Assembly (NCBI GenBank): GCA_052327205.1
Contig: JBMRGM010000035.1
Coordinates: 100,564,001-100,628,000, forward strand
Origin: Somniosus microcephalus
Lineage: Eukaryota
Reading direction: 5' to 3'
Length of the DNA stretch: 64,000 nucleotides
Position 1 is the first letter of the stretch, and the number at the start of each line of letters is the position of its first letter. Position numbers and translations under genes: made by a program. Below, one piece after another: positions 20,645 to 64,000 of this stretch. The notes under the pieces are model-generated. The model worked only from the letters and a program-made list of their open reading frames with translations, was not told the DNA's origin and searched no databases.

Positions 20645-23600
20645 ATTAGTCCTTCTGATAATTCAGACACAGACAGCTGTCCTTTTGATAATTCAAACCT
20701 AGGAAGTTGGCCATTCTGAAAATTCAGAGCCAGACAGCGGGCCCTTCTGCTTGGCCAGACCCAGACAGTGAGACCTATTGATAATTCAGGCCCAGACAAT
20801 GGGGAATCTAATAATTCAGACACAAACAGTCGTTGTCTCAGCTAATTCTGCCCCAGAGATTAATTGATTCTGATAATTCTGAATGAGATAGGGGGTGTTA
20901 TGAAAACTCAGTCGCAGAAAGTGGTTGTCTCGTAATGTTCAGTCCCAGAGATTTGTTCCTTCTGATAATTCAGACACAGAGAGTGGGTGCTTCTGCTATT
21001 TCAGGTCCAAAATGTGTATCCTTCTGATACCTAACTTCTTACAGTGGGTGTTTATGACGTTTTACACCCAGAAAGTGGCAGCCGAGGAAATTAAACCCAG
21101 ACAGCGGGTGTTTGTGTTAATTCAGAGCCAGAGAGTGTATGTTTGTATTAATTCAGACCCAGATAGTGGGTGCCTCGGATAATTCAGCACCAGACAGTCG
21201 TTATTTCTGCTAATTCAGACGGATACAGCAGATGATTCTGATAATTCAGACACACGCAGTCTGCCATTCCGAAAGTTAAGACCGAGGCCGTGGGTGATAA
21301 TCATAATTCAGACACAGAGAGTGCGCCCTGCGGATAATTCATATTCAGGCAGTGGGTTCTTATGATAATTCAGACCCAGACCGTGGGTGTCCCTGATGAT
21401 TCAGATTAAAAAGTCAATGTTTCTGATTAATCAGACCCAGACAGTTGTTTCTGATAACTGAGGCCCAGACAGTGGTTCTTTCTGATCAGTCAGGCCCAGA
21501 TAATTGAGTGTTTCTGGAAATTCAGGCGCAGCCTGTGGGTGTTTCTGATCATTCAGACCCAGAGAGTCGATGTTACTGATAATTCAGATGCAGAAATTGT
21601 TTGTTTATCATAAGTTAAACGCAGACAGTGGGTGTTTCAGAAAATTCAGGCCCAGTAAGTGGCTGTTTCTGATACGTCAGAACCAGAGAGTGGGTGTTTC
21701 TAATAATTCAGATCCAGGCCGTGTTCCTTCCTGATAATTCACAACCAGACAGTGGGTGTTTCCGATATTCCAGACCCAGTTAGTGTGTGTTTCTGATACT
21801 TCAGAGCCAGACAGTGGGTGTTTCTGATAATTCAGGTCCAGGCATTGCTTTTTCCTGATAATTCACAACCAGACAGTGGGTGTTTCCGAAAATCCAGACC
21901 CAGTCAGTGGGTGTTTCTGATACTTCAGTGCCAGGCAGTGGGGCCTAGAAATTGAGTTTGCCTCCACCAGGGCTGTAGCGCCCGAAATTTAGCGCCAGCG
22001 TTAATTGCCGCTGCGCCTGGCAAAAATTCAGCTGCGCCGTGCCCAGATGGCTGCGGGCGCTAATGGAGGGTGTTAGCGCCTCGCAATGGGCGCTGAATGC
22101 AGGATTGCGGCACTAATCCCCCGCTGCAGCACCCGATGCAGTGCGGCAGGCTGGGGTACTGCAGGCCTCCTCCTTCTGTTAAGGAGGAGCTGCCTGCAGC
22201 CGACCGCTGGCCGGTGGAATCGCACGAAAAATGAGCCCGGCACCTCGGAGAAGTGCCGGGCTCGAGGCCCACACACATCTGTGCCACGGGGGGGTGGTGG
22301 AGGAGTCTGGGGAGGGAGGTGCGGGCAGGCGGCCGCCGGGAAAGCGGCCGGCCGCCGCGCCACATTAATGCGCCGGCGCTAAGTCCAGCAAGAAACTTTT
22401 AAAAATCGTTGGTTGCGGCTGCCACGGGCGAGGTGGCCGCAAATGAATTGCGGCGTCCGGCTGCATTACCACGGCAACCGGGACGCTGCGCACACCGATG
22501 ACGTCATCGGTGCCAGCGCAGCGCTACCGGCTAACGCCGATGGTAGGGCCCAAATCAATTTCCGAAGCGGCTATAATTCCGGCGCAAGGCCCTCTAGTGC
22601 CTCTAATTGGGCGCTAACCCCACTCAATTTCTAGGCCTGGGTGTTTCTGATAATTCAGGTCCAGGCACTGTTATTCCTGGTAAGTCACAGCCAGACAGTG
22701 GCTGTTGCCGATAATTCAGACCCAGATATTGGGTACTTCTGATAATTCTGTGCCAGAGAGTGATTATGTCTAATAATTCAGACCCAGACAGTGGGGCTTC
22801 TCAAAATTCAGAACCAGACAGTGGGTGTTTCTGATAATTCAGAACCAGAGAGATTGTGTTTCTGATACTTCAGAACCAGACAGAGGTTGTTTTTGATCAT
22901 TCAAATCCAGAGAGTGGTTGTTTCTGATAATTCAGACCAAACGGTGTTTGTTCCTGATAATTCACATCCAGACAGTGTGTGCTTCTGATAATTCAGGCGA
23001 GATGGGTTTTTTTTCCCATTAATTAACACCCAGAAATTGGTTGCTTTTGATAATTCAGTGCCAGAGAGTGGTTATTGCTGATAATTAGGACGCAGACATT
23101 GGGGGTTTATCATAATTCAGACACAGACAGTGCGACCTTCGGGTAATTCATATTCAGACAGTGGGTGTTTACGTTAATTCAGAGCAAGACATTGGGTGTT
23201 TCTGATAATTCAATGCCAGAGATTTGTTACTTCTGATAATTCTGAGCCGAACAATGGGTGTTTCTGATAATTCAAACCCAGACAGTGGTTGTTTCTGATA
23301 ATTCAGACAAGACAGTGGGTGTTTCTGATAAATGAGGCCCAGACATTGGGTGTTTCTGATAAATCAGAACTGGACAGAGGATGTTTCTGATTATTCAGAC
23401 GCAAACAGTGGGTGTTTCTGATCATTCAGACCCAGAGAATCATTTTTTCTGATAACTCAGTGTCACAAAGTCGTTTCTGATAATTCTGAGCCAAGCAGTG
23501 GGTAATTCTGAGAATTCAGACCCAGACATTGGGTTCTTCTGATAATTCAGACCCAGGCAGTGTGCGTTTCTGATAATTCAGACAGAGACAGTGGTTGTTT

Positions 23601-25521
23601 CTGATAACTCAGGCCCAGATGATTGGGTGTTTCTGATAACTCAGACCCAGACATTGTTTATTTCTGATAAGCAAGAAGCAGACAGTGGCTGTTCTGAAAA
23701 TTCAGCTACAGACAGAGGGTGTTTCTGATAATTCCGACCCAGACAGAGGGTGTTTCTGATAATTCCGACCCAGACAGTGGGTGTTTCTGATAATTTCGAC
23801 CCAGACAGTGGGTGTTTCTGATAATTCCGACCCAGACAGTGGGTGTTTCTGAAAATTCGGACACAGACATTGGGTGCTTCTGATAATTCAGTGCCAGAGA
23901 CTGGTTATATCTCATAATTTGGAACCATACAATTGGTGTTTCTGATAAGTCAAACCTAGACAGTGGATGTTTCTGATCATTCTGACTCGGACAGTGAATG
24001 TTTCTGATAAGTGTGACGGAGGCAATACTCTATTCCGAAAATTAACTCCGAGGCAACGGGTGCTAATGATAATTCAGACACAGTCAGCGTCACCTTTGGA
24101 TAATTCATACTCAGGCACTGGGTGTTTATGATAATTCAGACCAGACAGTGGGTGTCACTGATAATTCTGAAACAGAAGTAATTGTTTCTGATAATTCAGA
24201 CCCAAAGAGTTGTTTCTGATCATTCTGAGCCAAACAGTGGGTGTTGCTGATGATTCAGACCCAGAAAGTTGGCGTGTCTGACAATTCAGACCCTGACAGT
24301 GGGTGTTTGTGATAATTGAGACACAGATAGTGGGAGTTTCTGATTATTCGGGCCCAGACAATGGGTGCGGCTGATAATTCAAACCCAGGCAGTGTCTTTT
24401 TTGTAATAATTCAGACCAGACAGTGGGAGTTTTTGGTAATTCAGGCCCAGACATTGGGTGCGGCTAATAATTCAGAAATGGAACGATTCGTGTTTCTGAT
24501 CATTCAGAAATAGACAGTGGTTGTTTCTGAACTTCGAGACGCAGACAATGGATGTTTCTGATGACTCAGACCCAGAACATCATTGTTTCGGATAATTCAG
24601 AGCCAGACAGTTGTTCCTGTTAACTCTGAGCCGAACAGTGGGTGTTTCTGATAATTCACCGCAGACAGTGGGTGTTTCTGATAATGCACCCCAGACAGTG
24701 GATGTTTCTGATAATTCAAACCCAGACATTGGTTATTTCTGATAAGTAAGACTTAGATGATTGGATGTTTCTGAAAATTCAGATGCCAGCATTGGCTATT
24801 CCTGATAATTCAGACCCAGACAGTGGGTGTTTCTGATAATGCAGACGCTGACATTGTTTGATTCTGACATGTTAGAAGCAGAAAGCGAGTGTTCTGATAA
24901 TTCAGACGCAGACAGCATGTGTTCTGATAATTCAGACGCAGAAAGTGTGTTTTTGGGGTAATTCCAATGCATATCGTGTGTTTTTCTGATAATTCAGACA
25001 TAGACATTGGTTGCTTCTGATAATTCAGAGCCAGACAGTGGGTGTTTCTGATTAGTCAAACCTAGACAGTTGATTGGTCTGATAATTCTGACCCAGATAG
25101 TGTTGTTTCTGATAACACAGACCCAGGTGATTGGGTGTTTCTGATCATTCAGATCCAGATATTGTTTATTTCTGATAATTCAGACGCAGACAGCGAGTGT
25201 TCTGATAATTCAGACGCAGACAGTGGGTGTTTCTAAAGATTAGGACACAGACATTGGGTGCTTCTGATAATTCATTGCCAGAGATTGATTATTTCTGATA
25301 ATTCAGAACCAAACAATGGGTGTTTCTGATGCGTCAGACCTAAACAGTGGATGTTTCTGCTAATTAAGACCCAGACAGTGGCTGTTTCTGATTAATCAGA
25401 CTTATGTTAATGCTTACTCAGAGAATGCATTTTTAGCATAACACGCACCCAGACAATGGTTTTTTATGAAAATGTAGGCACAGACAGTGGGCACTTCTAA
25501 TAATTCAGACCCAGACATAAG
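20645..25521 (+). repeat. 31-bp satellite array (contains one MITE)
   Basis: 31-bp period is directly visible, e.g. near-identical units at 23721-23850. Confidence 0.96.
21942..22637. mobile_element. Harbinger MITE (696 bp)
   Basis: TIR GGCCTAGAAATTGAG / CTCAATTTCTAGGCC. TSD TGG at 21939-41 and 22638-40. No transposase. Confidence 0.93.
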
Positions 25522-26092
25522 GGGGGAGAAATTCAGTGGGTTGCGCCAGCCGCTAACGCCATAAAAGGGCTATATTTCCGGCGCTAGACACTTAGCACCT
25601 GAACGCAGTCCGATCTGCGCCGATGCCCAAATTCAGTTGACATTTAGCGCCGGCGCAAAGTGTTTGCGCCCACTCAGGTGCGCGCGCAGCTTATGACATC
25701 ATGTCGTCGCGCAACGCTGATTGTGCGCCCCAAACCGGAAATTCAGTGGCGCCCGCCCAATGTGGGCGTGGCGCTGCTAAGAACTGTGAGGTTGGATGCA
25801 AAAGAAGCCCTGTGGGCCTCGGGGAGCGCTAATTAAAGGGCACTTACACTGACCTATATAGCCCAGCCATTTTGCTGCAATGACTTTTCTGCTTTGGATT
25901 TCTGGACAGAGACCAAGGGACAGAGTTACTGATTTGGGACAACATAGGAGAGGTATTTTTGGCTTCTGGCCAGTGCTTTGACATTGTGATTTATCTGTTC
26001 TCAACTTTATTATGGGGGCTGTATGGGGGGCCAACCCTCAGTTGCAGCATTATGTGTGAAGGGCTCGCAGACGCTGTGAGAGAGGGCCAGCC

Positions 26093-27148
26093 ATGCCTAG
26101 ACGCAGAGGGGCCATCAGGCGTCGGCAACGTAGGCCTTACCCACTCAGGCAATACCGGCAGCAGGTGTCCTATCTCACCATGACTGCGGCGCATTGTGTG
26201 AAGAGGCTGCGCTTCAGAAGGGAGGTGGTTGCAGAGACCTGCCAGCTGCTTCACACAGATCTGCGTCCACAGCTGATGTGCAGGACGTCTCTCTCGGTGG
26301 AAGTGAAGGTCACGGTGGCTCTGAACTTTTATGCAAGCGGCTCCTTCCAAGCCGCTGCTGCGGACATAGTGAACATCTCCCAGTTTGCCGCGCATCGCTG
26401 CATCCGGCAGGTCACCGATGCACTTTACGCGAGGAGACACCAATTCATCTCCTTCCCCATGACCCGACAGAGGCAGGAGCAGCGTGCAGTCGGATTTGGC
26501 AGGATCGCGGGCTTCCCCATGGTGCAGGGCGCCATTGACTGCACGCATGTCGCTATGCGGGCACCCATCCACAATGCCGAGGATTACCGCAACCGGAAGG
26601 GCTACCATTCCCTAAATGTACAGCTGGTGTGTGACCACAGGCAGCGCATCCTAGCTGTCAATGCCCGCTTCCCAGGAAGCAGCCATGATGCATTTATCCT
26701 GCGCCAGACTACTGTGGCTGACATGTTCGAGGCACAGCCTCCACCAAGGGGATGGCTTATCGGGGACAAGGGCTACCCTTTGTGTACATGGCTCATGACC
26801 CCGCTCCGCGCGCCCAGGACCCCAGCGGAGGAGGCATACAACGAAAGCCATCAAGCCACAAGGAACAGCATCGAGCAAACGATAGGCATCCTCAAGCAAC
26901 GGTTCTGCTGCCTGGATCATTCCGGAGGATCTCTTCAGTATTCGCCGGATAGAGTCTCCCAGTTCGTCGTCGTGTGCTGCATGCTGCACAACCTGGCTAT
27001 CCGCAGGACTCAGGCACTGCCACCTGGCATTGCACCACCACCTCAGGAGGACGAGCAGGGGGAGGAGGAGGAGGAGGAGGACCAGCCCAGGAGGGAGCGA
27101 CAAGGGCCAAGGGACGTCCGCCGGGGGCTTATTGATCGATACTTCTAG
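26093..27148 (+). CDS. Harbinger DDE transposase (351 aa open frame; ancestral ATG at 26012 followed by TGA at 26057)
   Basis: HTH-like region (RLRFRRE, VTVALNFYASGSFQ), catalytic GAIDCTH / GDKGY / RNSIEQTIGILK, acidic tail. Confidence 0.88.
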   Translation: MPRRRGAIRRRQRRPYPLRQYRQQVSYLTMTAAHCVKRLRFRREVVAETCQLLHTDLRPQLMCRTSLSVEVKVTVALNFYASGSFQAAAADIVNISQFAAHRCIRQVTDALYARRHQFISFPMTRQRQEQRAVGFGRIAGFPMVQGAIDCTHVAMRAPIHNAEDYRNRKGYHSLNVQLVCDHRQRILAVNARFPGSSHDAFILRQTTVADMFEAQPPPRGWLIGDKGYPLCTWLMTPLRAPRTPAEEAYNESHQATRNSIEQTIGILKQRFCCLDHSGGSLQYSPDRVSQFVVVCCMLHNLAIRRTQALPPGIAPPPQEDEQGEEEEEEDQPRRERQGPRDVRRGLIDRYF

Positions 27149-28084
27149 GCCCCCTGTCAGGGAATTGCCTGTGGCAATGAACGCACCTGAGGCAGCTGCT
27201 CCGCAAGCCCTCAGCCAGTTAACGCAACAACCACTTCAAACTTGACACCTGGACATGCTGAATAAATCAAAAGCTTTATTTCACAAACTCAGGGCCCTTC
27301 CCACATGAAACAGAAAAACAGACAAGACCCCCAAAAAACAGTCAAAAACATCTGTCACTCCCAAAACCTGGGGAGGACTAACAAAACTTGCCCATCCAAA
27401 AGGCCTTCAACAGCGGCCTTACAAAAATAAGCCCCCCCCCACAACAGAGACACCCCCATGAAAACAAAAAATGCCTTGATCCTCGGCCTTAACAAAATAA
27501 TGCCCCCCACAACACAAGCCCCCCAATATAAAAGAAACCGCTCTCACCACACTCTAATGGGTGTGCCGAGAGGGCGAGTACTTAGACAGGCTTCTCCGGC
27601 CCCTGGCCGACCTGCTGCTCCACCTCAACCTGGGCCCTGCGGGTGTGGCGAGGCTGGGGGAAGGCTCATGAGGGCCACAAAGCGTGTTGGCAGATGCCCT
27701 TGGGGGTAGGCCTAAACGAGGCCTGGCCCGGGAGGGGCCGCATGCTGACTGCTGCAGCTGTGGCTGGGCAGCATCAGTCTTAGCAGCAGCTCGTCGCACC
27801 TTGGCTGGGGGAGTGGCAGTGTTGACAGCACCATTGGGGGCAAGCTGGCTGATGGCAGGTGCGCGCTGCTCGCCAGAGACACTGGCACTCGTCCGGGCTG
27901 GCACTGTAGCAAGCGCTGCAATCTGGGGGAGGCCAGACCGCTGTGCTACAGCAGGGTGGCGGGTGCCATGGCGATGCCACCGTGCCACAGCGAGTGTGGC
28001 AGAAGTGAGTGCCCGAACTGCCCTGGTAAGTGCCCGCATCAGCTCTGCCAGTGTCTGGACGGCACCACTCATCTCGCGAGTCGC

Positions 28085-28345
28085 GTCCTGCGCTGCCGCC
28101 AGTTGCTGCACACCCGCGTCCTGCGCTGCCGCGAGTTGCTGCACACCCCTGTCCTGCGCTGCCGCGAGTTGCTGCACACCCCTGTCCTGCGCTGCCGCGA
28201 GTTGCTGCACACCCCTGTCCTGTGCTGCCGCGAGTTGCTGCAAACCCCTGTCCTGCACTGCCGCCAGTTGCTCCACACCCCTGTCGTGTGCTGTGGCCAG
28301 TTGCTGGACACCCCTGTCGTGCGCTGCCATGAGTTGTTCGAACCC
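28085..28345 (-). repeat. 33-bp coding tandem repeat (about 8 copies; QQLAAAQDRGV)
   Basis: Visible in ORF 27554..28480 and in the DNA (GTTGCTGCACACCCCTGTCCTGCGCTGCCGCGA). Confidence 0.92.
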
Positions 28346-29214
28346 CCTGGCCTGTGATTCCCCGAAAGCCACCACACTCTGAGCCAGGGACTCAATGGCG
28401 TGAGGCATCTGTTCGCCCACCCCCATGAACTCTTGGTGGCGCCGCTCAGACGCCGCCAACATCTCATCGAGGACGCGCACCTCCTGGGCGAGGACCGTGT
28501 CCGGACTGGAGGGCGGACTCTCCCTCCGGGGAGAAGGCCGCCGTGCTGGCCGACCCTTCCCACGTGCGTCGACCCCACTTGGGCCAGGTTCTGCCCACCC
28601 TCCAACACCTCCCCGCTCTGGGGAGAAGGCTGGCCTGCTGCCGGATCCTTCCCGCGTGCGTCCACCCTACTGGGACCAGCTTCGGCCCTCCCCTCCAACA
28701 CCTCCCCCTGGCTCTCCTGCAGGCCAGACGTCTCCCCTCCATTGCCATCCCCTGGCGCGGAGGAGGGTTCCCCCGATGTGCCGCCTTCCTCCTGGTCCTT
28801 GATGTCCTCCTCCTCCAAGGGCCTGGCTCTCTGCGCTTCAGGGACCACCTCCTCCTCACCAGCTGAAAGCAGGAAGGCACAAAAGTAGCTTTAGAGTGAG
28901 TACAGGCCATCAGCGAGGGAGGCCTGAGTGGTGCATTATGCGCATTTGTCGGTCAGTGGGAAAGGATGTAGATCTGAAGCGCGAGGGCAATGAGAGAGGT
29001 GCAACCGGTCATGTCCTTACCAGTGGGTACCAGTACAGGGTCCGCCACGCCGATCGCGACAGGGCCAGTCACCCGGCCACGCATGAGTCGTGCCACGCTC
29101 TCTTCCAGATCAGTGAGAGCCTGGTACTCGGGACGGCCTCCACCAGTGACAGCCTGGCCCTTTACAGTGCTCACCAGCTTGGCCTGCAAGAGAAAGGACG
29201 GCCTCTAAGTACAT

Positions 29215-29490
29215 TGTGGTGCCCTGTCGCTGTGTGCACTGCCTCCCATGGTGGAATAGCTTGGCCAGTGTGGTGCCCTGTTGCTGGGTGCACTGCCTCC
29301 CATGGTGGAATAGCTTGGCCAGTGTGGTGCCCTGTTGCTGGGTGCACTGCCTCCCATGGTGGAATAGCTTGGCCAGTGTGGTGCCCTGTTGCTGGGTGCA
29401 CTGCCTCCCATGGTCGAATAGCTTGGCCCGTGTGGTGCCCTGTTGCTGGGTGCACTGCCTCCCATGGTCGAATAGCTTGGCCAGTGTGGT
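29215..29490. repeat. 54-bp minisatellite x5 in intron 1 of the Myb gene
   Basis: CCATGG recurs at 29246, 29300, 29354, 29408, 29462. Confidence 0.93.
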
Positions 29491-30352
29491 AAGTGCAGAA
29501 AGTGCTATTGATGAACATGCAAGTGCCATTGCTGCGGCAGGAGGGCTGCCCATTAGGCCTTTGAGGTCCCTTTGCCCATAATGTGAGGTGCACATGCAAA
29601 GATGAGGGGGACACTGGAAAGGGTACTCACCTTCACCATCCGAGTGAGGTCGTTGAACTTCTTGCGGCATTGTTCCCACTCCTGGGGACATCACAGGTGG
29701 ATGACAGCCTGCGGGCGATTTTGCCCCAGGCTCTCCTGTACTGGCTCCTGGGAGCCTTCCTGCCACTGTCCGGGCACAGGATCTCTCTTCTCTTCTCCAC
29801 ACCATGAATGAGCACACTCAGAGCATGCTCTGAGAAGCGCTGCGCTCGCTCACGGGCCCTCTCCATTGTTCCAGGCGCTATTTTGGCACACCAGTAGTGC
29901 TGAGGCCTAGCTGCAGGGCTCCAGTATGCAGGGCGAGGCAGCAGTCAAAGTTGACCCTTCCCCCTTTAAGAGCTGGCCGGCGTCAGGGTGTCTGCTGTCA
30001 ATCAAAACATGACCGCAACTGCGCTGCGCCCGGCTTCGGCATTATCAGGCCGCATCGCCGGCTTAGCGCCGGAACACAGCATTTCAATGCCAGTTTCAGC
30101 GCTCGGCCAAACTTAGGGCCAACTCTACTGAATTTCGGCGATGTGGCCTACACTTTCCGGCGGGTGCTAACTTTAGCGAGCGCCCGACTTTAGCACCCCA
30201 AAAGTGTCCAGACTGAATTTCTAAGCCAAGGTGTTTCTGATCATTCAGACCCAGTCATTGGGAGCTTCTGATAATTCAGAACAAGGCAGGGGGTGTTTCT
30301 GCAAACTCAGTCCCAGACAGTGGGTGTTTGCGATTATTCAGACAGAGACACT

Positions 30353-31054
30353 GGCCTACAAATTGGGTATAGCCCCGCCAGCTCGTTTGCGCCGAAAATT
30401 TTGCGCTGGCCGCAGAGCCAGTTGTGCCCGTCCCATATTCACTTTTAGCACCCCAAGGCGGTACCGGGCGCTGTTCCAGGGTGTGCCCGCCCCCGCTTGG
30501 GGCGCTGACAGTGAATTTCAGCGCTCCCGGTGCCGCTGCGTCACCCGATGCGGTGTGGCAGGCTGCTGTACTGCAGGCCTCCTCCTTCTCTTAAGGAGGA
30601 GCTGCCTGCAACGGCCGGAGCCCCGATCGCGAGTGCCGTCAAAAGAGCCCGGCACAACGGAGAAGTGCCGGGCTCCACGGACACCAGCCGGCAATGCCGC
30701 GGGGGGGTGGGTGGAGGAGGCCGGGGAAGGAGGTGCGGGCAGGCGGCCGCCGAAAAAGCGGCCGGCCGCACCTCCACCTTAAAGCGCCCCGCTAAGGCTG
30801 CAGTAAGGACCCGGTCTCCTGATGTTGTTAGCGGCCACCACGGAAGAGGCGGCCGCTACTGAAGATGGGGGTCGGGGCGGTAGCGGGGCGGAACTGGGGC
30901 ACTGCGCACACCGATGACGTCATCGGTGCCGGCGCAGCGCTACTGGCTACCGCCGCCATTACCGCGGCCCTCAAAATCAGCGCTACCAACCCTACTGGCG
31001 CAGAAGCCCTCTTTGGGCTGTAACTAGGCGCAAAGCCCACTGAATTTCTAGGCC
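30353..31054. mobile_element. Harbinger MITE (702 bp)
   Basis: Ends GGCCTACAAATTG / GAATTTCTAGGCC. TSD ACT at 30350-52 and 31055-57. Confidence 0.92.
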
Positions 31055-31183
31055 ACTGTGTTTTTCTAACAATTGAGACCCAGACAGTGGTTGTATCTGA
31101 TAATTCAAGCCCACACAGTGGGTGTTTCTGATAATTCAGACCCAGACAGTGGTTGTTTCTGATAATTCAAACCCAGAGAGTGG

Positions 31184-31950
31184 GGGGGAGAAATTCAGTA
31201 GGTTGCGCCACCCATTAGCACCTTAAGAGGGCGCTATGTGGGTTGCAAGCCAACTGGCGCCCAGGCGCGGCACTGCCCACGCCTCCCACTAAATTCGGCG
31301 GGACGTTAGTGGTGGCACTAACCGTTAGCGCTGCGCCACTGTCGATGATGTCATTAGTATGCACAGAGCCCCGCTGATGCCCCGGCCGCAATATTTGGCG
31401 GCACCCCCTCATTTGCCGCCGTACGCTATGTCCGACAGGTTGAGGGGGGCCTACCTGCAGCCAGGGAGGCGCAAATTAAAGGTGAGGTGCGGGGCAATCA
31501 TTTTTATTGTTGGCCGCCTGCCAGCACCTGCCTGTGCTCCCGTCCCCGGCCTCCTGAACCCACACCACCCCCCCGCGGAGTGCCGGCTGGTCTCTAAATG
31601 CATGGCAATTCTCTTTAGTGCCGGGCTCTTTTGCCTACACTCCCGATCCTCGGGGGCCCAGCTGGGCCCCAGATCACGCTGCACAAGGCCCCTCCCCTTT
31701 AAGAAGGGGAGGAAGGCCGGCAAAACCACAGCGTGATGTGCCACTGCGCGTGGCGCTGAGGCATGTAGCGCCACGATATTCATTCACAGCGTCCCAAGAG
31801 GGATGCGGTGCACCTCCACTAGCACCATGCTTCCCTTTGGGGCACAACCACTCAACTTCCGGTGCGGGGGCAAGAATGTTTCTGGGGCACTGCGTTTAGT
31901 GACCTGGTGAGTCTGGCGCCCCAAACGGAGCTATACTCAATTTCTCCCCC
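31184..31950. mobile_element. Harbinger MITE (767 bp), opposite orientation to neighbouring MITEs
   Basis: Ends GGGGGAGAAATTCAGTAG / CTCAATTTCTCCCCC. TSD TGG. Confidence 0.92.
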
Positions 31951-32570
31951 TGGGTGTTTCTGAATATTCAGACACAGACAGAGTTCTTTTCTAAGGATTC
32001 AGAGCCAGACAATGGGTGTTTCTGATAATTCAGCCACAAGCATTGGGTGTTTCAGATAAGTCAGACACAGACAGTGGGTGTTTCTGATAATTCACCCCAG
32101 GCCGTTGGTGACTCTAATAATTCCGAGCCAGACACTCGATGTTTCTGATAATTCAGACCAGGCCGTTGGTTCTTCTGATAATTGAGGCCCAGACATTGGG
32201 TGTTTCTGATAAATCAGAACTGGACAGAGGGTGTATCTGATAATTCAGACGCAGGCAGTCGGTATTTCTGATAATTCAGACCCAGACAGTGTGTTTTTCT
32301 GATAATTCACACACAGACAGTGGTTCTTTCCGATAACTCAGGCCCAGATGTTTGGGTGTTTCTGATAATTCAGACCCAGACATTGTTTATTTCTGATAAG
32401 CCAGACGCAGACAGCGGCTGGTCTAATAATTCAGATGCAGACAGAGGGTGTTTCTGATAATTCCGATCCAGACAGTGGGTGTTCTGAAAATTCGGACACA
32501 GATATTGGGTGCTTCTGATAATTCAGTGCCAGGGAGTCATTGGTGCTAAAAATTCAGAACCAGGCATTGG

Positions 32571-48785: not shown

Positions 48786-48789
48786 ACTA

Positions 48790-51754: not shown

Positions 51755-51857
51755 ATTTGGATGATCAGCCATGATCTCATTGAATGGTGGAGCAGGCTCG
51801 AAGGGCCGAATGGCCTACTCCTGCTCCTATCTTCTATGTTCCTATATTTCTATGTTA

Positions 51858-54800
51858 ATTCAGAGCAAGGCAGTGGGTGTTTCTGATAATTCAATGTCAG
51901 AGAGTTGTTATTTCTGATAATTCTGAGCCAAACAGTGGGTGTTTTTGATAATTCAAAAACAGCCAGGTGGTGTTTCTGATAATTCAAACCCTGACAGTGG
52001 TTGTTTCTGAAAATTCAGTCCAGGCAGTTGGTTCTTCTGACATTTGGTGTCAGAACTGGACAGAGGGTGTATCTGATCATTCAGGCGCAGACAGTGGGTG
52101 TTTCTGATAATTCAGACCCAGAGAATCATTGTTTCTCAAAATTCAGAGCCACAAAGTTGTTTCTGATCATTCTGAGCCAAGCAGTGGGTAATTCTGAGAA
52201 TTCAGACCCAGTCAAGATGCTTCTGATAATTCAGACCCAGACGGTGGTTCTTTCTGATAACACAGTCCCAGATGATTGGGTGTTTCTGATAATTCAGATG
52301 CAGACATTGTTTATTTCTGATAAGTCAGACGCAGACAGCAGCAGTTCTGATATTTCAGATGCAGACAGAGGGTGTTTCTGATAACTCCGACCCAGACAGT
52401 GGGTGTTTCTGAAAATTCGGACACAGACATTGGGTGCTTCTGATAATTCAGTGCCAGAGTTTGGTTATTTCTGAAAATTCAGAACCAGACAATGGGTGTT
52501 TCTGATAAGTCAGACGTAGACAGTGGATGTTTCTGATCATTCTGACGCAGACAGTGGCTGTTTCTGTTAAGCCAGACCTAGACAGTGAATGTTTCTGATA
52601 ATTCTGACCCAGACAGTGGCTGTTTCTGATAAGTCTGATGGAGGCAATTCTCCATTCTGAAAATTAACTCCGAGGCAGAGGTGATAATGATATTTCAGAG
52701 AGAGACAGTGTGACTTTCGGATAACTCATACTCAGGCACTGGGTGTTTATGATAATTCAGACCCAGACAGTGGGAGTCTCTGATAATTCAGAAACAGAAG
52801 TAATTGTCTCTGATAATTCAGACCCAAACAGTTGTTTCTGATCATTCTGAGCTAAACAGTGGGTGTTTCTGATGAATCAGACACAGACAGTTTTCCAGGA
52901 TGATAATTCAGACCCTGGCAGTGGGTGTTTGAGATAATTCAGACCCTGACAGTTGTTTTTCTGCTAATTCCGACCCAGACTGTTGTTTCTGATAATTCAG
53001 ACTCAGACAGTGGGTATTTCTGATAATTCAGACACAGATAGTGGGTGTTTCTGATTATTCAGAACCAGACAATTGGTGCGGCTGATAATTGAAACCCAGG
53101 GAGTGTTTTTTTTGTAATATTTAAGACCAGACAGTGGGAGTTTCTGGTAATTCAGGCCCAGACATTGGGTGCTTCTGATGCTTCCGTATTGGACAGATTG
53201 TGAAGCTGATCATTCAGGAATAGACAGTGGTCGCATCTGAACTTCGAGACGCAGACAATGGATGTTTCTGATAATTCAGACCCAGAAAGTCATTGTTTCT
53301 GATCATTCTGAGCCAGACAGTTGTTTCTGGTAATTCTGAGCCAAACAGTGGGTGTTTCTGATAATTCACCCCAGACAGTGGGTGTTTCTGATAATTCAAA
53401 CCCGGCCATTGGTTATTTCTAATAAGTAAGGCTTAGATGATTGGATGTTTCTGAAAATTCGGATGCCAACTTTGGCTGTTCCTGATAATTTAGACCCAGA
53501 CAGTGGGTGTTCCTGATAATTAGACCCTGACATTGTTTGTTTCTGATATGTTAGACGCAGACAGCGGGTGTTCTGATAATTCAGGTGCACACAGTGGGTT
53601 TTTCTGATAATTCCAACCCATACCGTGTGTTTTTCTGAAAATTCAGGCATAGACATTGGGTGCTTCTTATAATTCCGTGCCAGAGAGTGGTTATTTCTGA
53701 AAATTCAGAGCCAGACAGTGGGTGTTTCTGATAACTCCAACCTACACAGTGGATTGGTCTGATAATTCAGACTCAGATAGTGATTGTTTCTGATAAATCA
53801 GACCCAGATGATTTGATGTTTCTGATAATTCAGACCCAGATATGGTTTATTTCTGATGTCAGGTGCAGACAGCGGGTGTTCTGATAATTCAGACTCAGAC
53901 AGAGGGTGTTTCTGATAATTCCAACCCAGACAGTGGGTGTTTCTGAAAATTCTGACACAGACATTGGGTGCTTCTGAAAATTCAGTGCCAGAGACTGGTT
54001 ATTTCTGAAAATTCAGTAGCAGACATTGGATGTTTCTGATAAGTCAGACCTAGACAGTGGATGTTTCTGATCATTCTGGCCCAGACAGTGGCTGTTTCTG
54101 ATAAGTCAGACAGAGGCAGTTCTCCATTCCGAAAATTAACACTGAGGCAGCAGGTGATAATGTTAATTCAGACACAGACAGTGCGACCTTTGGATAATTC
54201 ATGCTCAGGCAATGGGTGTTTAATTAATTCAGACCCAGACAGTGGGAGTCTCTGATAATTCGGAAACAAAAGCAATTCTTTCTGATAATTCAGAGCCAGC
54301 CTGTTCTTTCTGATCATTCTGAGCCAAACAGTGGCTGTTTCTGATGATTCAGATTCAGAGAGTGGCGTGTCTGACAATTCAGGCACTGAAGTGGGTGTTT
54401 TTGATAATTCAGAGCCAGACAGCTTGTTTGTCAGCTATCTCAGACCCAGACAGTTGTTTCTGATTATTCAGACTCAAGGCAGTGAGTATTTCTGATAATT
54501 CAGCCCCAGATAGTGTGTGTTTCTGAATATTCAGCCACAGACAGCAGGTGTTTCTGAAAATTCAAAGCCAGGCAGTGGGAGTTTCGGAAAATTCAGTCCC
54601 AGACATTTTGTACTTCTGATAATTCAGTACTGGATAGAGGGTGTTTCTGATCATTCAAACACAGACAATGGTTATTTCTGATAAGTAAGTCCTAGATGAT
54701 TGGGTGTTTCTGAAAATTCAGCCACCAGCTTTGGCTGTTCCAGATATTTCAGACCCCGACAGTGGGTTTATCTGATAATTCAGACCCTGACTTTGTTTGT

Positions 54801-57800
54801 TTGTGATATGTTAGACGGAGACAGCAGGAGTTCTGATACTTCAGGCGCAAACAGTTTTTTTTTTCTAATAATTGCAACACATATCGTGTGTTTTTCTGAA
54901 GATTCAGACACAGACATTTGGTGCTTCTGATAATTTAGACCCAGAGAATCATTGTTTCTGATAGTTCAGAGCCACAAATGTGTTTCCGATAATTCTGAGC
55001 CAAGCAGTGAGTATTTCTGAGAATTCAGAACCAGACAATGGGTGATCCTAATATATCAGACCTAGACAGTGGATGTTTCTGATAATACAGACCCAGACAG
55101 TGGGTGTTTCTGATCATTCAGACCCTGCCAATGGGAGATTCTGATAACTCAGACCCAGACATTGAGTGCTTCTGATAATTCAGAACCAGACAGTGGGATT
55201 TTGTGTTTCACAATTCAGACCCACACATTGTATACATCTGATAATTCAGGCCCAGAAAAGGGATCCTTCTGATAATTTATGCCCAGACAGTTTAGCCTCG
55301 GAAAATTCAGCAGTAAACAATCATTGTTCCTGATAAATCTGTTCGATACAGAGGTTGTTTCTGATAATTCAGAGCGAGACACTGGGTGTTTCTTATAATT
55401 CAGAAATAGACAGCGAATTTTTCTGATAATTCAGACACCAGACAGTGGGTGTTTCTGAAAGTTCAGAACCAAGCAGAGGCTGTTTTTGCTATTTCAGAAC
55501 AGACAGCGGGTTTTTCTGAATATTAAGATACAGGCAGCGATATTTTCAGATAATTCAGAGACAGACAGCGTGTGTTTCGAACAATTCAGACCCAGACAGT
55601 GAGTGTTCCTGATAATTCAGACACAGACAGTGATAATTTCTGACAATTCAGAGCCAGACAGTTTGTATTTCTGATAATTCAGAGCCAGACAATCGGTGTT
55701 TATGATAATTCAGACCCAAACAGTTGGTGTTTCTGATAATTGAGAACCAAACCGTGTGTCCTTCTGATAATTCAGATTCAGACAATTTGTGTCTATTACA
55801 ACTCTGACCCAGTCAGTTGGACATTCTTATAATTCAGATCCAGACAGTGGGTGTTTGTGTCATTTCACACCAAGACAGTGTAACCTACGGGATATTCAGA
55901 ACCAGACAGTTGGTGCTTATGTTAAGGCTTACCTAGAGAATACATGTTTAAGATAACACGCACCCAGACAATAGGTTTTTCAGAAAATTTGGACACAGGC
56001 AGTGGGCTCTTCTGATAATCCAGACCCAGAAATAAGGTGTTTCTGATCATTGAGACCCAGACATTGGGAGCTTCTGATTATTCAGAACAAGGCAGAGGGT
56101 GTTTCTGGAAACTCAGACCAAGGCAGTGGGTGTTTGTGATTATTCAGACACAGACAGTGGGTGTTTCTGACAGTTCAGACCCAGACAGTGGTAGTTTCTC
56201 GTAATTCAGTCCCACACAGTGGGTGCTTCTGATAATTCAGACCCAGACAGTGGGTGTTTCTGATAATTCAAACCCAGACAGTGGGTGTTTCTGAATATTC
56301 AGACTCAGACAGTGTTCTTTTCTAAGGATTCAGAGCCAGGCAGTGGTTGGTTCTGATAATTCAGACATAACATTGGGTGTTCTGATCATTCAGACACAGA
56401 CACTGGTAGTTTTTGATAATTCAGACCCAGGCAGTTGGTGTCTCTGATAATTCACAGCCAGACACTCGGTGTTTCTGAAAATTCAGACCAAGGCAGTTGT
56501 TTCTAATAATTCAGATCAAGGCAGTGGGTGTTTCTGATAATTCAGACCAAGGCAGTTGTTTCTGATCATTCAGATGAAGACAGTGGGTATTTCTGATAAT
56601 TCAGACCGAGAGAGTTGGTGTCTCTGTTAATTCAGACCAAGGCAGTTATTTCTGATCATTCAGATGAAGACAGTGGGTATTTCTGATAATTCAGACCGAG
56701 AGAGTTGGTGTCTCTGTTAATTCAGACCAAGGCAGTTATTTCGGATAATACAGACACAGACAGTGAGTGTTTCTGATAATTCAGACCCTGCCAGTGGGAG
56801 TTTCTGATAAGTCAGACCCAGACATTGAGTGCTTCTGAAAATTCAGAACCGGACAAGTGGGATTTTGTGTTTGATAATTCAGACCCACACATTGTATACA
56901 TCTGATAATTCAGGCCCAGAAAAGGGATCCTTCAGAAAATGTATACCCAGACAGTTTTGCCTCGGATAATTCAGCAGTAAACGATCGTTGTTCCTCATAA
57001 TTCTGTTCGATACAGAGGTTGTTTCTGATAATTCAGTGCGAGACAGTGGGTGTTTCTTATAATTCAGAAATAGATAGTGAATTTTTCTGATAATTCAGAC
57101 ACAGAGAGTGGGTGATTCTGAAAATTCAGAACCAAGCAGAGGCTGTTTCTGATAATTCAGTGCGAGACAGTGGGTGCTTCTTATAATTCAGAAATAGACA
57201 GTGAATTTTTCTTATAATTCAGACACAGGGAGTGGGTGATTCTCAAAATTCAGAACCAAGCAGAGATTGTTTCTGATATTTCGAACAGACAGTGGGTATT
57301 TCTGAATATTCAGACACAGACAGCCATATTTTCTGATAATTCAGAGCCAGACAGCGTGTGTTTCGAATAATTCAGTCCCAGACATTGGGTGTTCCTGATA
57401 AATCAGTCACAGACAGTGATAATGTCTGATAATTCAGAGCCACACAGTGGGTGTTTCTGAAATTCCAGACAAAGACTGTAGTTTTAATCTGATAATTCAG
57501 AGCGAGACAGCGGGTGTTTCTGACAAATCAGACCCATTCACTGGACGCTTCTGATAATTCAGATACAGACGGTGGGCATTTCAGATAATTCAGAATAAAA
57601 CATTTATTTCTGTTAGTCCAGACCCAGACAGTGGTTGTTTCTGATAATTCAGACACAAATCTTGAGTGTTTATGAAAATTCAAACGCAGAGATTGTTTGT
57701 TTCTGAAAAGTCAGACGCAGACAATGAGTGTTTCTGCTAAATTAAACGCAGCCAGCTTGCGTTTCTGATAATTCAGACCCAGACAGAGGGTGGTTCTGAT

Positions 57801-58935
57801 AATTCTGACCCTGAATGTGGGTGTTTCCTACAAGTCAGACGCAGAAATTGGGATTTTCTGTTAATTCAGATGCAGAGAGTGGGTGTTTCTGAGATTTCAA
57901 ACCCAGGCAGTCTGCCGTTCCGAAAATTAAGACCAAGGCATTGAGTGATAATAATAATTCACATACAGACAGTGCGACTTTCAGACAATTCAAAAACAGG
58001 CAGTGGCTGTTCCTGATAATTCAGACCAAACAGTGTGTGTTTCTGAAAATACAGACCCAGACAGTGGGGTTCTCGAAAAATTCAGACCCAGAATGTCATT
58101 GTATCTGATAATTCAGAGCCAGAAAGTTGTTTCTGATAATTCTGATCCAGACAGTGTGTGTTTCTGAAAATTCAGGCACAGACATTGGCTGCTTCTGATA
58201 ATTCAGAACTGGACAGGGAGAGTTTCTGATCAATCAGGACCAGACAGTGGATGTTTCTGATATTTCAGACCCAGACAGTGGGTGTTTCTGAAAATTCAAT
58301 CCCAGATATTGTTTGTTTCTGATAAGTCAGATGCAGACAGTGGGTGTTTCTGATAATTCAGACCAAGGCAGTTGTTTCTGATAATTCAGATCAAGACAGT
58401 GGGTATTACTAATAATTCAGACCCAGACAGTGATTCTTTCTGAAAATTCAGACCCAGATATTGTTTGTTTCTGATAAGTCAGATACAGACAGTGGGTGTT
58501 TCTGATCATTCAGACCAAGGCAGTTGTTTCTGATAATTCAGATAAAGACAGTGGGTATTTCTGATAACTCAGACCCAGACAGTGGGTGTTTCTGATAATT
58601 CAGATCAAGGCAGTTGTTTCTGATAATACAGACCCAGACAGTGGGTGTTTCTGATAATTCAATCCCTGCCAGTGGGAGATTCTAATAACTCAGACACAGA
58701 CATTGAGTGCTTCTGATAATTCAGAACCAGACAGTGGGTTTATATGTTTGATAATTCAGACACACACATTGTATACACCTGATAATTCAGGCCCAGAAAA
58801 GTGATCTTTCAGATAATGTATACCCAGACAGGTTTGCCTCGGATAATTCAGCAGTAAACAATCGTTCCTCCTGATACATCTATTCGATACAGATTTTGTT
58901 TCTGATAATTCAGAGCGAAACAGTGGGTGTTTCCT
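51858..58935 (+). repeat. 31-bp satellite array
   Basis: Uninterrupted monomers, including a local 90-bp three-monomer duplication at ~56543-56735. Confidence 0.96.
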
Positions 58936-61900
58936 AGAGAGCAAATAATAAAAATGCCAACAGAGAAGGTCTTAGACTGAGGTAGCAGTGGGGAAATTAA
59001 AAACCAGAGCGTGTCAGGAAGGGGCAGAAGGTATGGAGTAAAAAGTAAAGTAATAAAAAGGGCAAAAACAGGATCTAAGTGTCACAAAAAATATTTGAAA
59101 GTTCTCTATCTGAATGCATGTAGCATTCGTGACAAAATAGACGAGTTAATGGCACAAATAACTACATATGGGTATGATCTTGTGGCCATTACAGAAACAT
59201 GGCTGCAGGGTGACAATGCCTGGGAATTAAACATACCGGGTTATTTAACGATCAGGAAGGACAGGCAGGAAGGAAAGGGAGTTGGGGTGGCTATGTTAAT
59301 AAAGGAAGGAATCACTGTAATACAGACAAATGATATTGGGTCAAAAGATCAGGATAATGAAACAGTTTGGATGGAGATAAGGAATAATAAGGGGAAAAAA
59401 CAGTAGTGGGCATAGTCTATAGGCCTCCAAACAGTTGCAAATATGTCGGACGGTGTATCAATGAGGAAATAGTTGAGGCTTGTAATAAGGGAGCATCTAT
59501 AATTATGGGGGATATTATTAATTGGTCAAATCAAATTGGGCAGGGCAGCCTTGAGGATGAGTTCATTGAATGTATTAGGGATGGGTTTCTTGAGCAGTAT
59601 GTAACTGAACTGACCAGGGGGCAAGCAACCTTAGATCTGGTCCTGTGTAATGAGACAGGATTAATTAATAATGTCCTAGTAAAGGATCCCCTTGGAATGA
59701 GTGACCACAACATGGTTGAATTCCATATTCAATTAGAGGGTGAGAAGGTTGGATCTCAAACAAGCGTGCTAAGCTTGAATAAAGGAGACTATGAAGGTAT
59801 GAGAGCGGAATTGAGTAGAGTGGATTGGGAAAATAGATTAAAGGGTAAGACGATACAGGATCAGTGGTGTACATTTAAGGAGTTATTTTACAACTTCCAA
59901 AAAAAATATATTCCACTGAGAAGAAAAGGGTGTAAAAGAAAAGACAGCCATCTGTGGCTAAGTAAATAAATTAAGGATAGTATTCAACTAAACACAAGGG
60001 CATATAAGGTAGCCAAATCTAGTGGAAGGATAGAGGATTGGGAAAACTTTAAAAGGCAGCAAAAAATATCAAAAAGATTGATTAAGAAAGGGAAGATAAA
60101 TTATGAAAATAAATTAGCAAAAAATATAAAAACAGATAGTAAGAGTTTTTATAGTTATATAAAAAGAAAAAGGGTGGCTAAAGTAACTGTTGGTCCCTTA
60201 GAGGATGAGACCGGGAAATTAATGGTGGGAAATATGGAGATGGTAAAAACACTGAATGAATATTTTGTATCAGTCTTTACAGTAGAGGACACTAAGAATA
60301 TCCCAACACTGGACAAACAGGGAGCTATATGGGGGGAGGAGCTAAACACGATCAAAATCACTAAGGAAGTGGTACTCGGTAAAATAATGGGACTCAAGGC
60401 GGATAAATCACCTGGACCTGATGGCTTACATCCTAGGGTCTTGAGGGAAGTGGCGGTAGGGATTCTGGATGCATTAGTAATAATTTTCCAAAACTCCCTG
60501 GACTCAGCAAAGGCCCCAGCAGACTGGAAAACTGCTAATGTAACACCCTTATTTAAAAAGGGCAGTAGACAGAAGGCTGGAAACTATAGTCCGGTTAGCC
60601 TAATATCTGTGGTGGGTAAAATTTTGGAGTTCATTATTAAGGAGACAGTAAAAGGACATTTGGATAATCATAATTTAATAGGACAAAGTCAGCATGGTTT
60701 TATGAAGGGGAAGTCATGTTTGACAAATTTGCTGGAGTTCTTTGAGGAAGTAACATATAGGGTGGATAAAGGGGAACCAGTGGATGTAGTGTAATTAGAC
60801 TTCAAAAAGGCATTTGACAAGGTCCCACACGAAAGATTATTGTTCAAGATAAAAAATCACGGGATTGGTGGTAATATTCTGGCATGGATAGAGGATTGGC
60901 TATCTAACAGAAGGCAGTGAGTTGGGATAAATGGTTCATTCTCAGATTGGCAATCAGTAACTAGTGGTGTTCCGCAGGGGTCAGTGCTGGGTCCCCAACT
61001 CTTTACAATTTATATTAACGATTTGGAGGAGGGGACCGAGTGTAACATATCAAAGTTTGCAGATGATACTAAGATGGGAGGGAAAGTAGTGAGTGAGGAT
61101 GACATAAAAAACCTGCAAGGGGACATAGACAGGCTAAGTAAGTGGGCAGAGATTTGGCAGATGGAATACAATACTGGAAAGTTTGAGGTTATGCACTTTG
61201 GCAGGAAAAATCGTAGAGCAAGTTATTATCTAAATGGCAAGAAACTGGAAAGTACTGAAGTACAAAGGGGTCTGGGGGACCTGGTGCACGAAACTCAAAA
61301 GGTTAGTATGCAGGTGCCGCAAGTGATTAAAAAGGCCAATGGAATGTTGGCTTTCATTGCTAGAGGGATAGAATATAAAAATAGGGAGGTATTGCTTCAG
61401 TTGTACAAGGTATTGGTGAGACCGCACCTGGAATACTGCATGCAGTTTTGTTGTTCATAATTAAGAAAAGACATACTTGCGCTCGAGTCAGTACAAAGAA
61501 GGTTCACTTGGTTAATCCCGGGGATGAGGGGATGGACATATGAGGAGAGGTTGAGTAGATTGGGACTCTACTCATTGGAGTTCAGAAGAATGAGAGGCGA
61601 TCTTATTGAAAAAAAAAGATTGTGAAGGGGTTGGATCGGGTGTATGCGGGGAGGATGTTCCCGATGATGGGTGAAACTAGAACTAGGGGGCATAGTCTTA
61701 GAATAAGGGGCTGCTCTTTCAAAACTGAGATGAGGAGGAACTACTTCACTCAGAGGGTGGTAGGTCCATGGAATATGCTGCCCCAAAAAGCTGTAGATGC
61801 TACATCATTACATAAATTTAAAACAGAAATAGACAGTCTTCTAGAAGTAAAGGGAATTAAGGGTTACGGGGACCGGGCAGGAATTTGGACATGAGTCTAG

Positions 61901-62136
61901 GTTCGGCGTGGACTTGGCCCTGTGGGTACCGGAGCGGGCCCAGGGGCCATGTAGCCTGATCCTGCTCCTATTTCGTGTGTCTAATTCTGTTAGATTCAGG
62001 AGATGGTTCTGTGATAGTAGATTGGCAGTTAGGATCAGATCCGCCATGATCTTATTGAATGTTGGAGCAATCTCGAGGGGCCGATTGGCCTACTCCTGCT
62101 CCTATTTCTTATGTTCTTATGTTCTTATGTTCTTAT
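58936..62136 (+). mobile_element. CR1 LINE, 5'-truncated just upstream of ORF2, disrupted
   Basis: ORF fragments 59011..61894 cover APE (LNACS, AITETW, YRPPN, SDHN) and RT (QHGF, FADDTK). (TTCTTATG)n tail at 62107-62136. Confidence 0.95.
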
Positions 62137-62714
62137 AATTCAGAAATAGACAGCGAATTTTTCTCATAATCCAGACACAGACAGTTGGTATTTCTGAAAG
62201 TTCAGAACCAAGCAGAGGCTGTTTCTGATATTTCAGAACAGACAGTGGGTGTTTCTGAATATTCAGACACAGGCAGCGATATTTTCTGATAATTCAGAGC
62301 CAGACAGCGTGTGTTTCGAATAATTCAGACCCAGACAGTGCGTGTTCCTGATAATTCAGACACAGAATGCGATAATTTCTGATAGTTCAGAGCCAGACAG
62401 TGGGTGTTTCTGAAATTCCAGACCAAGGCAGTGGTTTTATTCTGATAATTCCGAGCGAGACAGTGGGTGTTTCTGATAATTCAGTGCCAGACAGTGGGTA
62501 TTTCTGAAAATTGAGACCCATTGAGTGTTTTTTTCTGATAATTCAGAGATAGACAATGGTGGTTTCTGATAATTGAGAGCCAGACAATGGGGGTTTCTGA
62601 TAATTCAGATCCAGATAATCGGTGTTTATGATAATTCAGACCCAAAGAGTTGCTGATTCTGATAATTGAGACCCAAACCGCGTGTCCTTCTGATAATTCA
62701 GATTCAGACAATAT
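62137..62714 (+). repeat. 31-bp satellite
   Basis: Monomer consensus; paralogous to ~55395-55785. Confidence 0.93.
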
Positions 62715-64000
62715 GGGCCCGATTTCGTGGCTTGTGTGGGAAATGGTCGGATTCCCCCGAATGTGGGGTCCTGACACACAAATAAATGTGTCAGCCAGCT
62801 CTACACAATTTTCCGTAAAGTGGCCAATTAATTCCCAGCATGTGGAAAGCCTTGCTAATTGTCCATTTCTAGTCAGAAATCCCCACAGTATGATGTCATC
62901 ATTCGTGGTGCTTTCAATGTCTATAGCAAGCACTGCATCCTCTGAAAGTTTCCAAGCGAACCATACAGGATGGCAGAGGAGCCTGCAGCAGCTGTGGCCA
63001 GTGCCAGACCCCGAGCTGCCTCCAAATTCGACAAAGCTTCACTGCAGGCATTATTCGATGGGGTTAGGGCCCACAGGCAGGTCCTCTTTCCTAGGTCAGG
63101 CAGGAAGAGGCCTCCCACTGAGACCAAGGCTGCATGGATGCAGGTGTCAGCAGATGTCAACTCGAATGTGCATGTCATCTTTGCATCACATTTCTAACTC
63201 TTTCATTTACTCCCCCACAGTACCATCCAGAGCCCCTGTCGTCACTGTGGCGGAGGAAGAGGCTGTGCAGCCAAACTCCTCAGAGGAAGCTCCAACATCT
63301 GAGGGTGCAGAGTCAGCAGAATTAAGCGCACCCAGCACCAGCGCAGACACTCACACCTCGGGGGGACCTTCGGGACATAGTGTAGTGTTGTCACCTGGTG
63401 TTTCACAGATCACAAGTGAGCCTCAGCAGATTCTGGAGACAGGGACAGCAGTGGAGAGTCCTCATCGGAGGGTGCAGGACCCTGCCAGCTCAGCTCAGCT
63501 GCGCTGCATGTCGCCCCGCTGCCTTTGGGTCCATCCGTAAGATCAGAGGTGAGGGATCTCCATGCACAGATGCAGGAGTCTCTTGCAAGTTTTGTCTCCA
63601 GGGTCGCTGCGAGTGTGGAGCGAATGGAGGAGTCCATAGCGACCATGAGCAGAGCCTTTGTGGAGTCTATGGCACATGAAGACATCACCATGGAAAGGTT
63701 GGCAACCTCCATGGAGGAGATAACTCGCCAGGGTACGGAAAACATGGTGAGTGCTCATAAGAGAATGACATCTATTGAGGAGCGTTGGCCATCGATTGAA
63801 AAGAGAAACCAGATCTTCATGGAAGTCATTCTGAGTAGGACTGCCAGTGCAGAAACGGGTCCCCATGGCCCCCTAAAGCGCAGCAAGCTGCTCCCAAACC
63901 ACTTCCAAGCACTGGCCCCTTCTTGCCTGTGCAGCTTCAGGTGAGTGAGCAGCAGCCTGGTGCTCCTGGTGCTGATCATGCTGCTGCTGCCTCTGCTGCT
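62715..64000 (+). mobile_element. Harbinger element of another family (left end and Myb/SANT gene), running off the window
   Basis: The satellite stops abruptly at GGGCCCGATTTC. ORF 62970..63197 (R.RAASKF....LQALFDGVRAHRQVLFP......AWMQVS..VNS) is Myb/SANT-like. It is followed by acidic/Ser-rich and coiled-coil-like coding segments. Confidence 0.75.

Follow-up and report, generated by a model that had tools for sequence, protein, structure and literature searches.

Why do transposons of the Harbinger type enter a 31-bp satellite at so few of its positions? The question is raised by a 64,000-nucleotide stretch of the genome of Somniosus microcephalus (6.45 Gb; GenBank assembly GCA_052327205.1, contig JBMRGM010000035.1, positions 100,564,001 to 100,628,000 of the forward strand), which we call the window and whose contig we call C35. 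An initial annotation proposed that several Harbinger families share a 15-bp target preference and that the satellite, by offering one site per monomer, acts as a transposon sink or safe harbour. We consider it very likely that a loose 15-bp palindromic preference (ARASWC-WWW-GWSTYT), common to several abundant families, explains the satellite hits, the satellite being a passive read-out of this preference.

The monomers of the main array are identical to the consensus at about 26 of 31 positions, and paralogous higher-order blocks are present. The monomer is numbered such that the central TGG of the consensus occupies positions 10-12. The array segments and the Harbinger-type elements within them, with their target-site duplications (TSDs) and the monomer position hit, are as follows (window coordinates; SINE and LTR stand for short interspersed nuclear element and long terminal repeat).

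10038..11261, + strand: upstream segment of the same 31-bp array, from Tandem Repeats Finder (TRF) and the block map, with a SINE-like insert of ~0.7 kb at ~10530-11186
20637..62714, + strand: main array of the 31-bp tandem repeat, from TRF (period 31) and the block map, split into segments by insertions
21942..22637, unstranded: H2, 696-bp non-autonomous Harbinger-type element, TSD TGG, position 10, empty paralog at window 21815
25522..30227, + strand: H3, 4.7-kb Harbinger-type element, TSD AAG, position 10
26060..27148, + strand: open part of the H3 transposase, DDE_Tnp_4, E 7e-38
30353..31054, unstranded: H4, 702-bp element, TSD ACT, position 8, in a mutated monomer
31184..31950, unstranded: H5, 767-bp element of an older family (85-88% identical to other copies), TSD TGG, position 10
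32571..33285, unstranded: H6, 715-bp element, TSD TGG, position 10
33320..34005, unstranded: H7, 686-bp element, one monomer downstream of H6, TSD TGG, position 10
35857..36560, unstranded: H8, 704-bp element, TSD TGG, position 10
41844..47202, unstranded: H9, probably a duplicate of H5, of larger size owing to a nested LTR retrotransposon, TSD TGG
42582..47182, + strand: Gypsy-like LTR retrotransposon nested in H9, LTRs 86% identical, reverse transcriptase and integrase frames broken
62715..64000, unstranded: H10, 1.86-kb element of a second Harbinger family whose terminal inverted repeat (TIR) starts GGGCCCGATTT, TSD TAT, in the last monomer, ending at 64573 (573 bp past the window)

Nine Harbinger-type elements thus interrupt the window array, and the 3-bp duplication is identical on both sides in 9/9, in agreement with the initial annotation, whose quoted site strings were likewise all found in place (10/10). 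For H10, however, the annotation had borrowed a right flank GTGTCT from a paralogous site (62712), and this is not supported for the present copy, as its right side reads TAT and then ATATAT, outside the satellite. The family of H3 is young, with copies of 96-98% identity on other contigs; H3 itself has an early stop in the transposase and a frameshifted Myb homologue.

An exact 22-mer of the satellite has 118 matches in the genome, and the first 100 listed are all on C35, between 95.5 and 110.5 Mb, where the 31-bp arrays form paralogous blocks over 15 Mb. The surveyed stretches (664 kb including the window, all on this one contig) hold 106 of the 118 matches and 177,966 bp of satellite. At the junctions of this satellite with other DNA we count 26 Harbinger-type sites, 21 of them with matching triplets, and they represent 25 independent events after H5 and H9 are merged. 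A uniform spread over the 31 monomer positions, which the initial annotation had named as evidence against its view, is not what we find: 19 events are at position 10, 3 at position 8, 2 at position 4 and 1 at position 12. The proposal that one satellite motif is hit therefore stands for the majority of the events, i.e. 7/8 in the window (P 3e-10 at 1/31, post hoc) and 12/17 beyond it (P 7e-15 at 1/31), but not for all, since four positions are used overall. Left out of these counts were a TIR at C35:110456665, situated in the first bases of an LTR-like insert with its other end not in the satellite, and the copy of H10 that closes the 95.5-Mb array (a duplicate).

As a control we used 32 other gaps in the same arrays, many of them LTR-like or similar to long interspersed nuclear elements (LINEs). 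Their left junctions are found at 21 positions and only 1 is at the Harbinger position; the gaps were placed approximately, with some duplicates and short gaps among them, and show a tendency towards positions 8-15. Three of the control elements are in the window.

11262..14570, - strand: CR1/L2-type LINE in the satellite, with an 8-bp microsatellite tail, right end approximate
47720..51856, + strand: CR1/L2-type LINE, near monomer positions 16-20
58920..62135, + strand: CR1/L2-type LINE, near monomer positions 17-19, ends approximate

Two of the sites deserve a closer look. H4 (30350) had been placed in the common register, but it is at position 8, two bases off position 10, in a monomer that had mutated to a better site: it reads AGAGAC-ACT-GTGTTT, as compared with ACAGAC-AGT-GGGTGT in its two empty paralogs, and it has the top matrix score (see below) among the 25 scored sites. 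H5 and H9 (31181 and 41841) had been listed as two sites and both do carry a TGG duplication, but they most likely represent one duplicated event, to judge from their sequences, and were counted as one because their flanks are 88/93 and 85/93 identical and both have a C>G change lacking in two empty paralogs. The elements themselves are only 84% identical and have just 3 of ~32 non-CpG derived changes in common; therefore, the duplication followed closely upon the insertion, unless two separate hits fell on sister monomers.

The initial annotation described conserved flanks around a variable core. Within the array these flanks are merely the satellite consensus, therefore the preference had to be demonstrated outside the array, where it is indeed seen. 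Exact TIR patterns have 73,869 (15-bp pattern), 15,304 (second pattern) and 121 (third pattern, 18 bp) matches genome-wide, the first two amounting to 89,173 ends. The flank logo that the annotation had recommended was built from 154 ends on three other contigs (C1-C3), without a satellite 22-mer among the matches listed; removal of near-identical flanks left 144 unique ends (94 to 86, 30 to 29 and 30 to 29). The result is the palindrome given above, with ~6-7 bits of information and common to the three TIR groups. In the left flank there is an A at -9 (weak in the third group), a purine at -8, A at -7 (117/144), C or G at -6, A or T at -5 and C at -4 (103/144). The triplet core is all-A/T in 72 of the 144 ends and TAT/ATA in 35, as opposed to TWA in 11, CWG in 1 and TGG/CCA in 1. 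The idea of several families with one 15-bp preference is thus borne out off the satellite by three TIR groups, but the preference is loose (~7 bits) and the satellite site is a mediocre example of it.

Half-site counts point in the same direction. AAACAC-NNN precedes 3,227 of the 73,869 exact TIR ends (~22 expected), and AAACAC is the left hexamer of AAACACCWGGTCTTT, the target consensus of zebrafish Harbinger3_DR (PMC3016246), so the half-site that the annotation had named as common to the two systems is confirmed. AGACAG-NNN, the left half of the satellite site, precedes 115 of the 73,869 ends (~17 expected), and AGAGTC-ATA, a junction within LINE tails, precedes 1,075 exact TIR ends (0.4 expected). 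From the half-site and core counts it follows that in the satellite site one half is strong and the other weak, while the core is disfavoured.

Does this preference predict where the satellite is hit? Over 3,687 real monomers the matrix assigns 46.5% to position 10, 26.4% to position 8, 13.6% to position 4 and 7.3% to position 12, i.e. its four best positions are the four that took all 25 independent events. Among eight matrix variants differing in training set and width, position 10 is at the top in 7/8 (23-74%), and all four positions are among the top five in 8/8. Twenty-four of the 25 scored sites are above the 96th percentile of satellite positions, and one, without a clear TSD, is at 92.8. 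The density is predicted as well: exact TIR ends number 14 in the 177,966 bp of satellite as compared with 2.0 expected (6.9x), 7 as compared with 1.8 in the satellite beyond the window (3.9x), and 6 as compared with 5.6 in local non-satellite DNA, so the observed enrichment (3.9-6.9x) falls within the range given by the matrix (3.7-11x). The motif AGACAG-NNN-GTGTTT has 1,494 empty sites, 500 in the surveyed regions and 994 elsewhere; filled sites number 2 inside (0.4%) and ~4.9 outside (~0.5%, an estimate assuming independent halves). The per-motif comparison suggested in the initial annotation hence shows about equal occupancy, and not the excess expected of a sink.

A number of points weigh against our explanation. 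Twelve of the 118 satellite 22-mer matches fall beyond the surveyed stretches, and the training ends were taken from the top of the list of matches, where the initial 17 Mb of C1 predominate, and are not a random sample. The occupancy outside rests on independent half-sites, and on direct inspection 0/9 had GTGTTT as an exact partner. The window array is ~30x enriched (7 exact ends from 4 elements vs 0.23 expected), which exceeds the 4.3x of the matrix (P 9e-5, with ends treated as independent); the window was picked for its insertions and TIR ends come in pairs. There is also a roughly tenfold spread among arrays, with 3.9-4.5 events per 10 kb in three and 0.45 in the largest. Finally, the 19/25 at position 10 are above the 46.5% of the pooled matrix (P 0.003), though they fit the 74% of the 15-bp family-A matrix.

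Could the satellite nevertheless be a dedicated sink or safe harbour, preferentially used by Harbinger families, as first proposed? The strong clustering by position, the enrichment (especially that of the window array) and the flanks, in which a Pfam scan of 86 of 229 unmasked reading frames gave 3 matches, all to a LINE, and recognised no host gene, would agree with this. Yet 25 events are set against 89,173 exact TIR ends of two patterns, and the genome-wide counts largely refute the idea: the satellite is restricted to clusters on one contig (as far as the first 100 of the 118 matches listed go), the occupancy per motif is not raised, the enrichment fits the motif prediction, the LINE-tail junction AGAGTC-ATA alone precedes far more exact ends (1,075) than the 14 found in the satellite, and both the TGG core and the AGACAG half are disfavoured genome-wide. 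The same arrays also took up the 32 other gaps, many of them LTR- or LINE-like. A 'safe haven' would be expected to hold most copies, or a higher share per site, and neither is seen here; as the satellite holds ~25 of tens of thousands of copies it is therefore no special sink, and we regard this proposal as very unlikely. A more restrained version, in which motif preference is supplemented by an extra local pull in older arrays, such as Myb binding to AATTCAG or permissive chromatin, is improbable too, albeit somewhat less so. It is favoured by the excess in the window array, by the ~4 events per 10 kb in three arrays and by the 7-bp word AATTCAG, common to the monomer and the Harbinger TIR (shuffle P 0.03). 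However, the word is also present in the largest array, of 112 kb, which took only 0.45 events per 10 kb, the window was chosen for its insertions, its ends are paired, and the shared word is a marginal, post hoc observation; for the last reasons we also dropped the satellite as a derivative or mimic of the TIR, the shared word being only 7 bp long. Were older arrays actively recruiting the Harbinger complex, e.g. via the TIR-like AATTCAG in every monomer, which we likewise doubt, they would be true local traps (~30x in the window), filled by several families over successive bursts.

The clustering might also be only apparent, if a single ancestral insertion, or a small number of them, had been multiplied by tandem or segmental duplication; this is the second outcome that the initial annotation had named as fatal to its view. 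Duplication is the likely origin of the H5/H9 pair, and another copy of H10 closes a paralogous array at a distance of 5 Mb, with 91% identity over 3.5 kb. Against this, the satellite elements are of differing families and lengths (69-96% identical pairwise where alignable), and the identity of the remaining flank pairs does not rise above background (median 0.69, maximum 0.82) save for H10/D3 and D1/D2, which are different elements at sister monomers; D3, the element in the sister monomer of H10 in another array, has no clear duplication. Furthermore, empty paralogs exist for H2, H3, H4, H5 and H8, and those of H2, H5 and H8, together with three sites outside the window, have the same core. 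We thus rejected a duplicated ancestral insertion except in two cases, H5/H9 and the additional copy of H10, and as a general explanation it is extremely unlikely. Local hopping was dropped for H3 and one outside copy: 0/39 other full-length matches are on the same contig (40 of 3,127 and of 5,456 candidates scored), so that their closest relatives among those scored are on other contigs and these two give no sign of it.

We therefore return to the shared preference. The element type, the 3-bp duplications and the preference of the dispersed copies are directly established, as is the agreement of the predicted positions and density with those observed. The transposase-Myb complex would read two palindromic half-sites directly, as reported for other members of the superfamily, around a 3-bp staggered cut, and the satellite would supply such sites once per monomer by coincidence; few fixed positions are hit, likely because each monomer has one good and three weaker matches to the preference. 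An additional attraction by chromatin or selection is presumably not required, and the uneven loading of the arrays could reflect array age, homogenisation and block duplication. The monomers of the largest and emptiest array are nearest to the consensus (26.6 vs 25.6-25.9 of 31), which would fit younger or more homogenised DNA.

A further Harbinger-type element of the window is found outside the satellite.

14604..18929, + strand: H1, full-length Harbinger-type element in the 8-bp microsatellite of a LINE tail, site AGAGTC-(AAT/ATA)-GTGTCT
15087..16256, + strand: H1 transposase, DDE_Tnp_4 (E 3e-38), interrupted by a stop at 15579-15581
18263..18796, - strand: Myb/SANT-like frame of H1, Myb_DNA-bind_5 (E 8e-14)

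The duplicated triplets of H1 are unequal (AAT vs ATA), and the tail flanks it at window positions 14586-14603 and 18930-18940. As a landing class for Harbinger elements, the 8-bp tail microsatellite of LINEs and SINEs (TATGACTC-type) far exceeds the satellite, and 12 of the 144 sampled ends are of the tail type. The GGGCCCGATTT family, to which H10 belongs, has transposase and Myb genes as well, in the opposite arrangement. Matches to transposase (tblastn) were found for six satellite copies beyond the window and at 12 of 30 GGGCCCGATTT-family loci. With DDE_Tnp_4 and Myb/SANT domains, TIRs and a 3-bp duplication (matching triplets also in 14/18 paired copies on C1), the window elements are of the PIF/Harbinger (PHIS) type. 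Older remnants of this type are found outside the satellite at window positions ~3100-7500, with transposase fragments near 3084-3773 and 7203-7400 and a Myb-like fragment near 4965-5192.

Harbinger elements are also seen in other repeated settings. At one dispersed-repeat site two TIR groups had inserted at separate loci with an identical triplet (L005/L006 and L187/L188; L002 and L189), two other tandem repeats have repeated Harbinger insertions, some of them copied along with the repeat (L007-L016, C1 1.43-1.47 Mb), and a dense cluster of GGGCTAGATTTTCAG ends has at least 24 matches in ~100 kb (L206-L216, C1 16.55-16.65 Mb). A composite insertion at C35 100385694-100391561 (L044-L045) has short elements stacked at the right TIR of an H3-like element, and Harbinger elements abutting one another's ends were seen at further places. 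At C35 110312240-110324611 (L084-L085) a 12-kb inverted satellite segment is flanked by both ends of an apparent single Harbinger insertion (TGA duplication), which suggests an inversion breakpoint in or beside a Harbinger element.

Other features of the arrays may be mentioned. Each 31-bp monomer contains a near-palindrome, TCTGA-TAAT-TCAGA, and a second, G/T-rich tandem repeat adjoins the downstream side of two 31-bp arrays (L048, L049). SINE/LINE-like inserts (10530-11186, 47720-51856 and 58920-62135) meet the satellite where their tail repeats (AATTC-type, TTCTTATG-type) resemble the monomer, a pattern that suggests microhomology at the 3' junction. Several LTR-like inserts starting with TGTA enter the monomer just after AGAC (C35 110.39-110.46 Mb), which may reflect a slight preference for position in a further class of elements. 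A search of Rfam gave 0 matches within the window.

What is gained is that a preference learned from dispersed copies predicts, base by base, the insertion points in a tandem repeat unrelated to them, and does so even for the mutated monomer, where the site is shifted by two bases. Annotation can profit from this, as can a simple integration assay. The knowledge of the superfamily is unchanged; the satellite pattern is a natural read-out of a known, published property of vertebrate Harbinger elements. The counts further suggest that large families of a second lineage have the zebrafish AAACAC-type half-site as well, and that LINE-tail microsatellites have received far more insertions than the satellite. 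Searches of the literature, with most subscription journals outside their coverage, listed no report of position-locked Harbinger insertion into a satellite.

It is useful to compare these elements to known systems. Dada, Pokey and R2 are repeat-targeting 'safe haven' elements that mostly reside in their target repeat. As in those cases, a fixed position of a repeated unit is hit, but here the satellite holds only a minute part of the copies. In plants, PIF/Pong elements and the Tourist miniature inverted-repeat transposable elements, such as mPing with its 9-bp preference (PMC2836001 and PMC4482050), are similar in that autonomous and abundant short non-autonomous forms (~0.7 kb here) coexist and in that the preference reaches beyond the duplication. 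The shark elements differ in their longer informative flanks and their core: the TWA duplication of the strict PIF/Harbinger group, as described in PMC4482050, is seen in only 11/144 ends. The NuwaII group of PHIS has a C|TNA|G target, GG-starting TIRs and a length of ~4.7 kb (PMC4482050). The shark families mostly have a C before the duplication (103/144 ends) and, by symmetry, a G after it, GG-starting TIRs, a length of 4.0-4.7 kb and DDE and Myb/SANT frames; however, TAT/ATA is the commonest core here and TNA is found in just 16/144. Judged by the published group descriptions, the targets resemble those of NuwaII in the flanking C/G only, and the supplements of PMC4482050 may hold closer families.

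A further parallel can be drawn with zebrafish. According to PMC2836001, mobilisation of Harbinger3N_DR requires both proteins, the Myb-like protein binds the TIRs, and the extended target preference of Harbinger elements covers 15 bp in vertebrates, as compared with 9 bp in plants. Harbinger3_DR and the shark families have in common the two-gene PIF/Harbinger layout, the 3-bp duplication and a palindrome-like 15-bp target with A-R-A-S-W-C half-sites. They differ in that the shark core is AT-rich and variable, the CWG duplication of the NuwaI/Harbinger3_DR type being present in only 1/144 ends, and in that the shark preference is loose.

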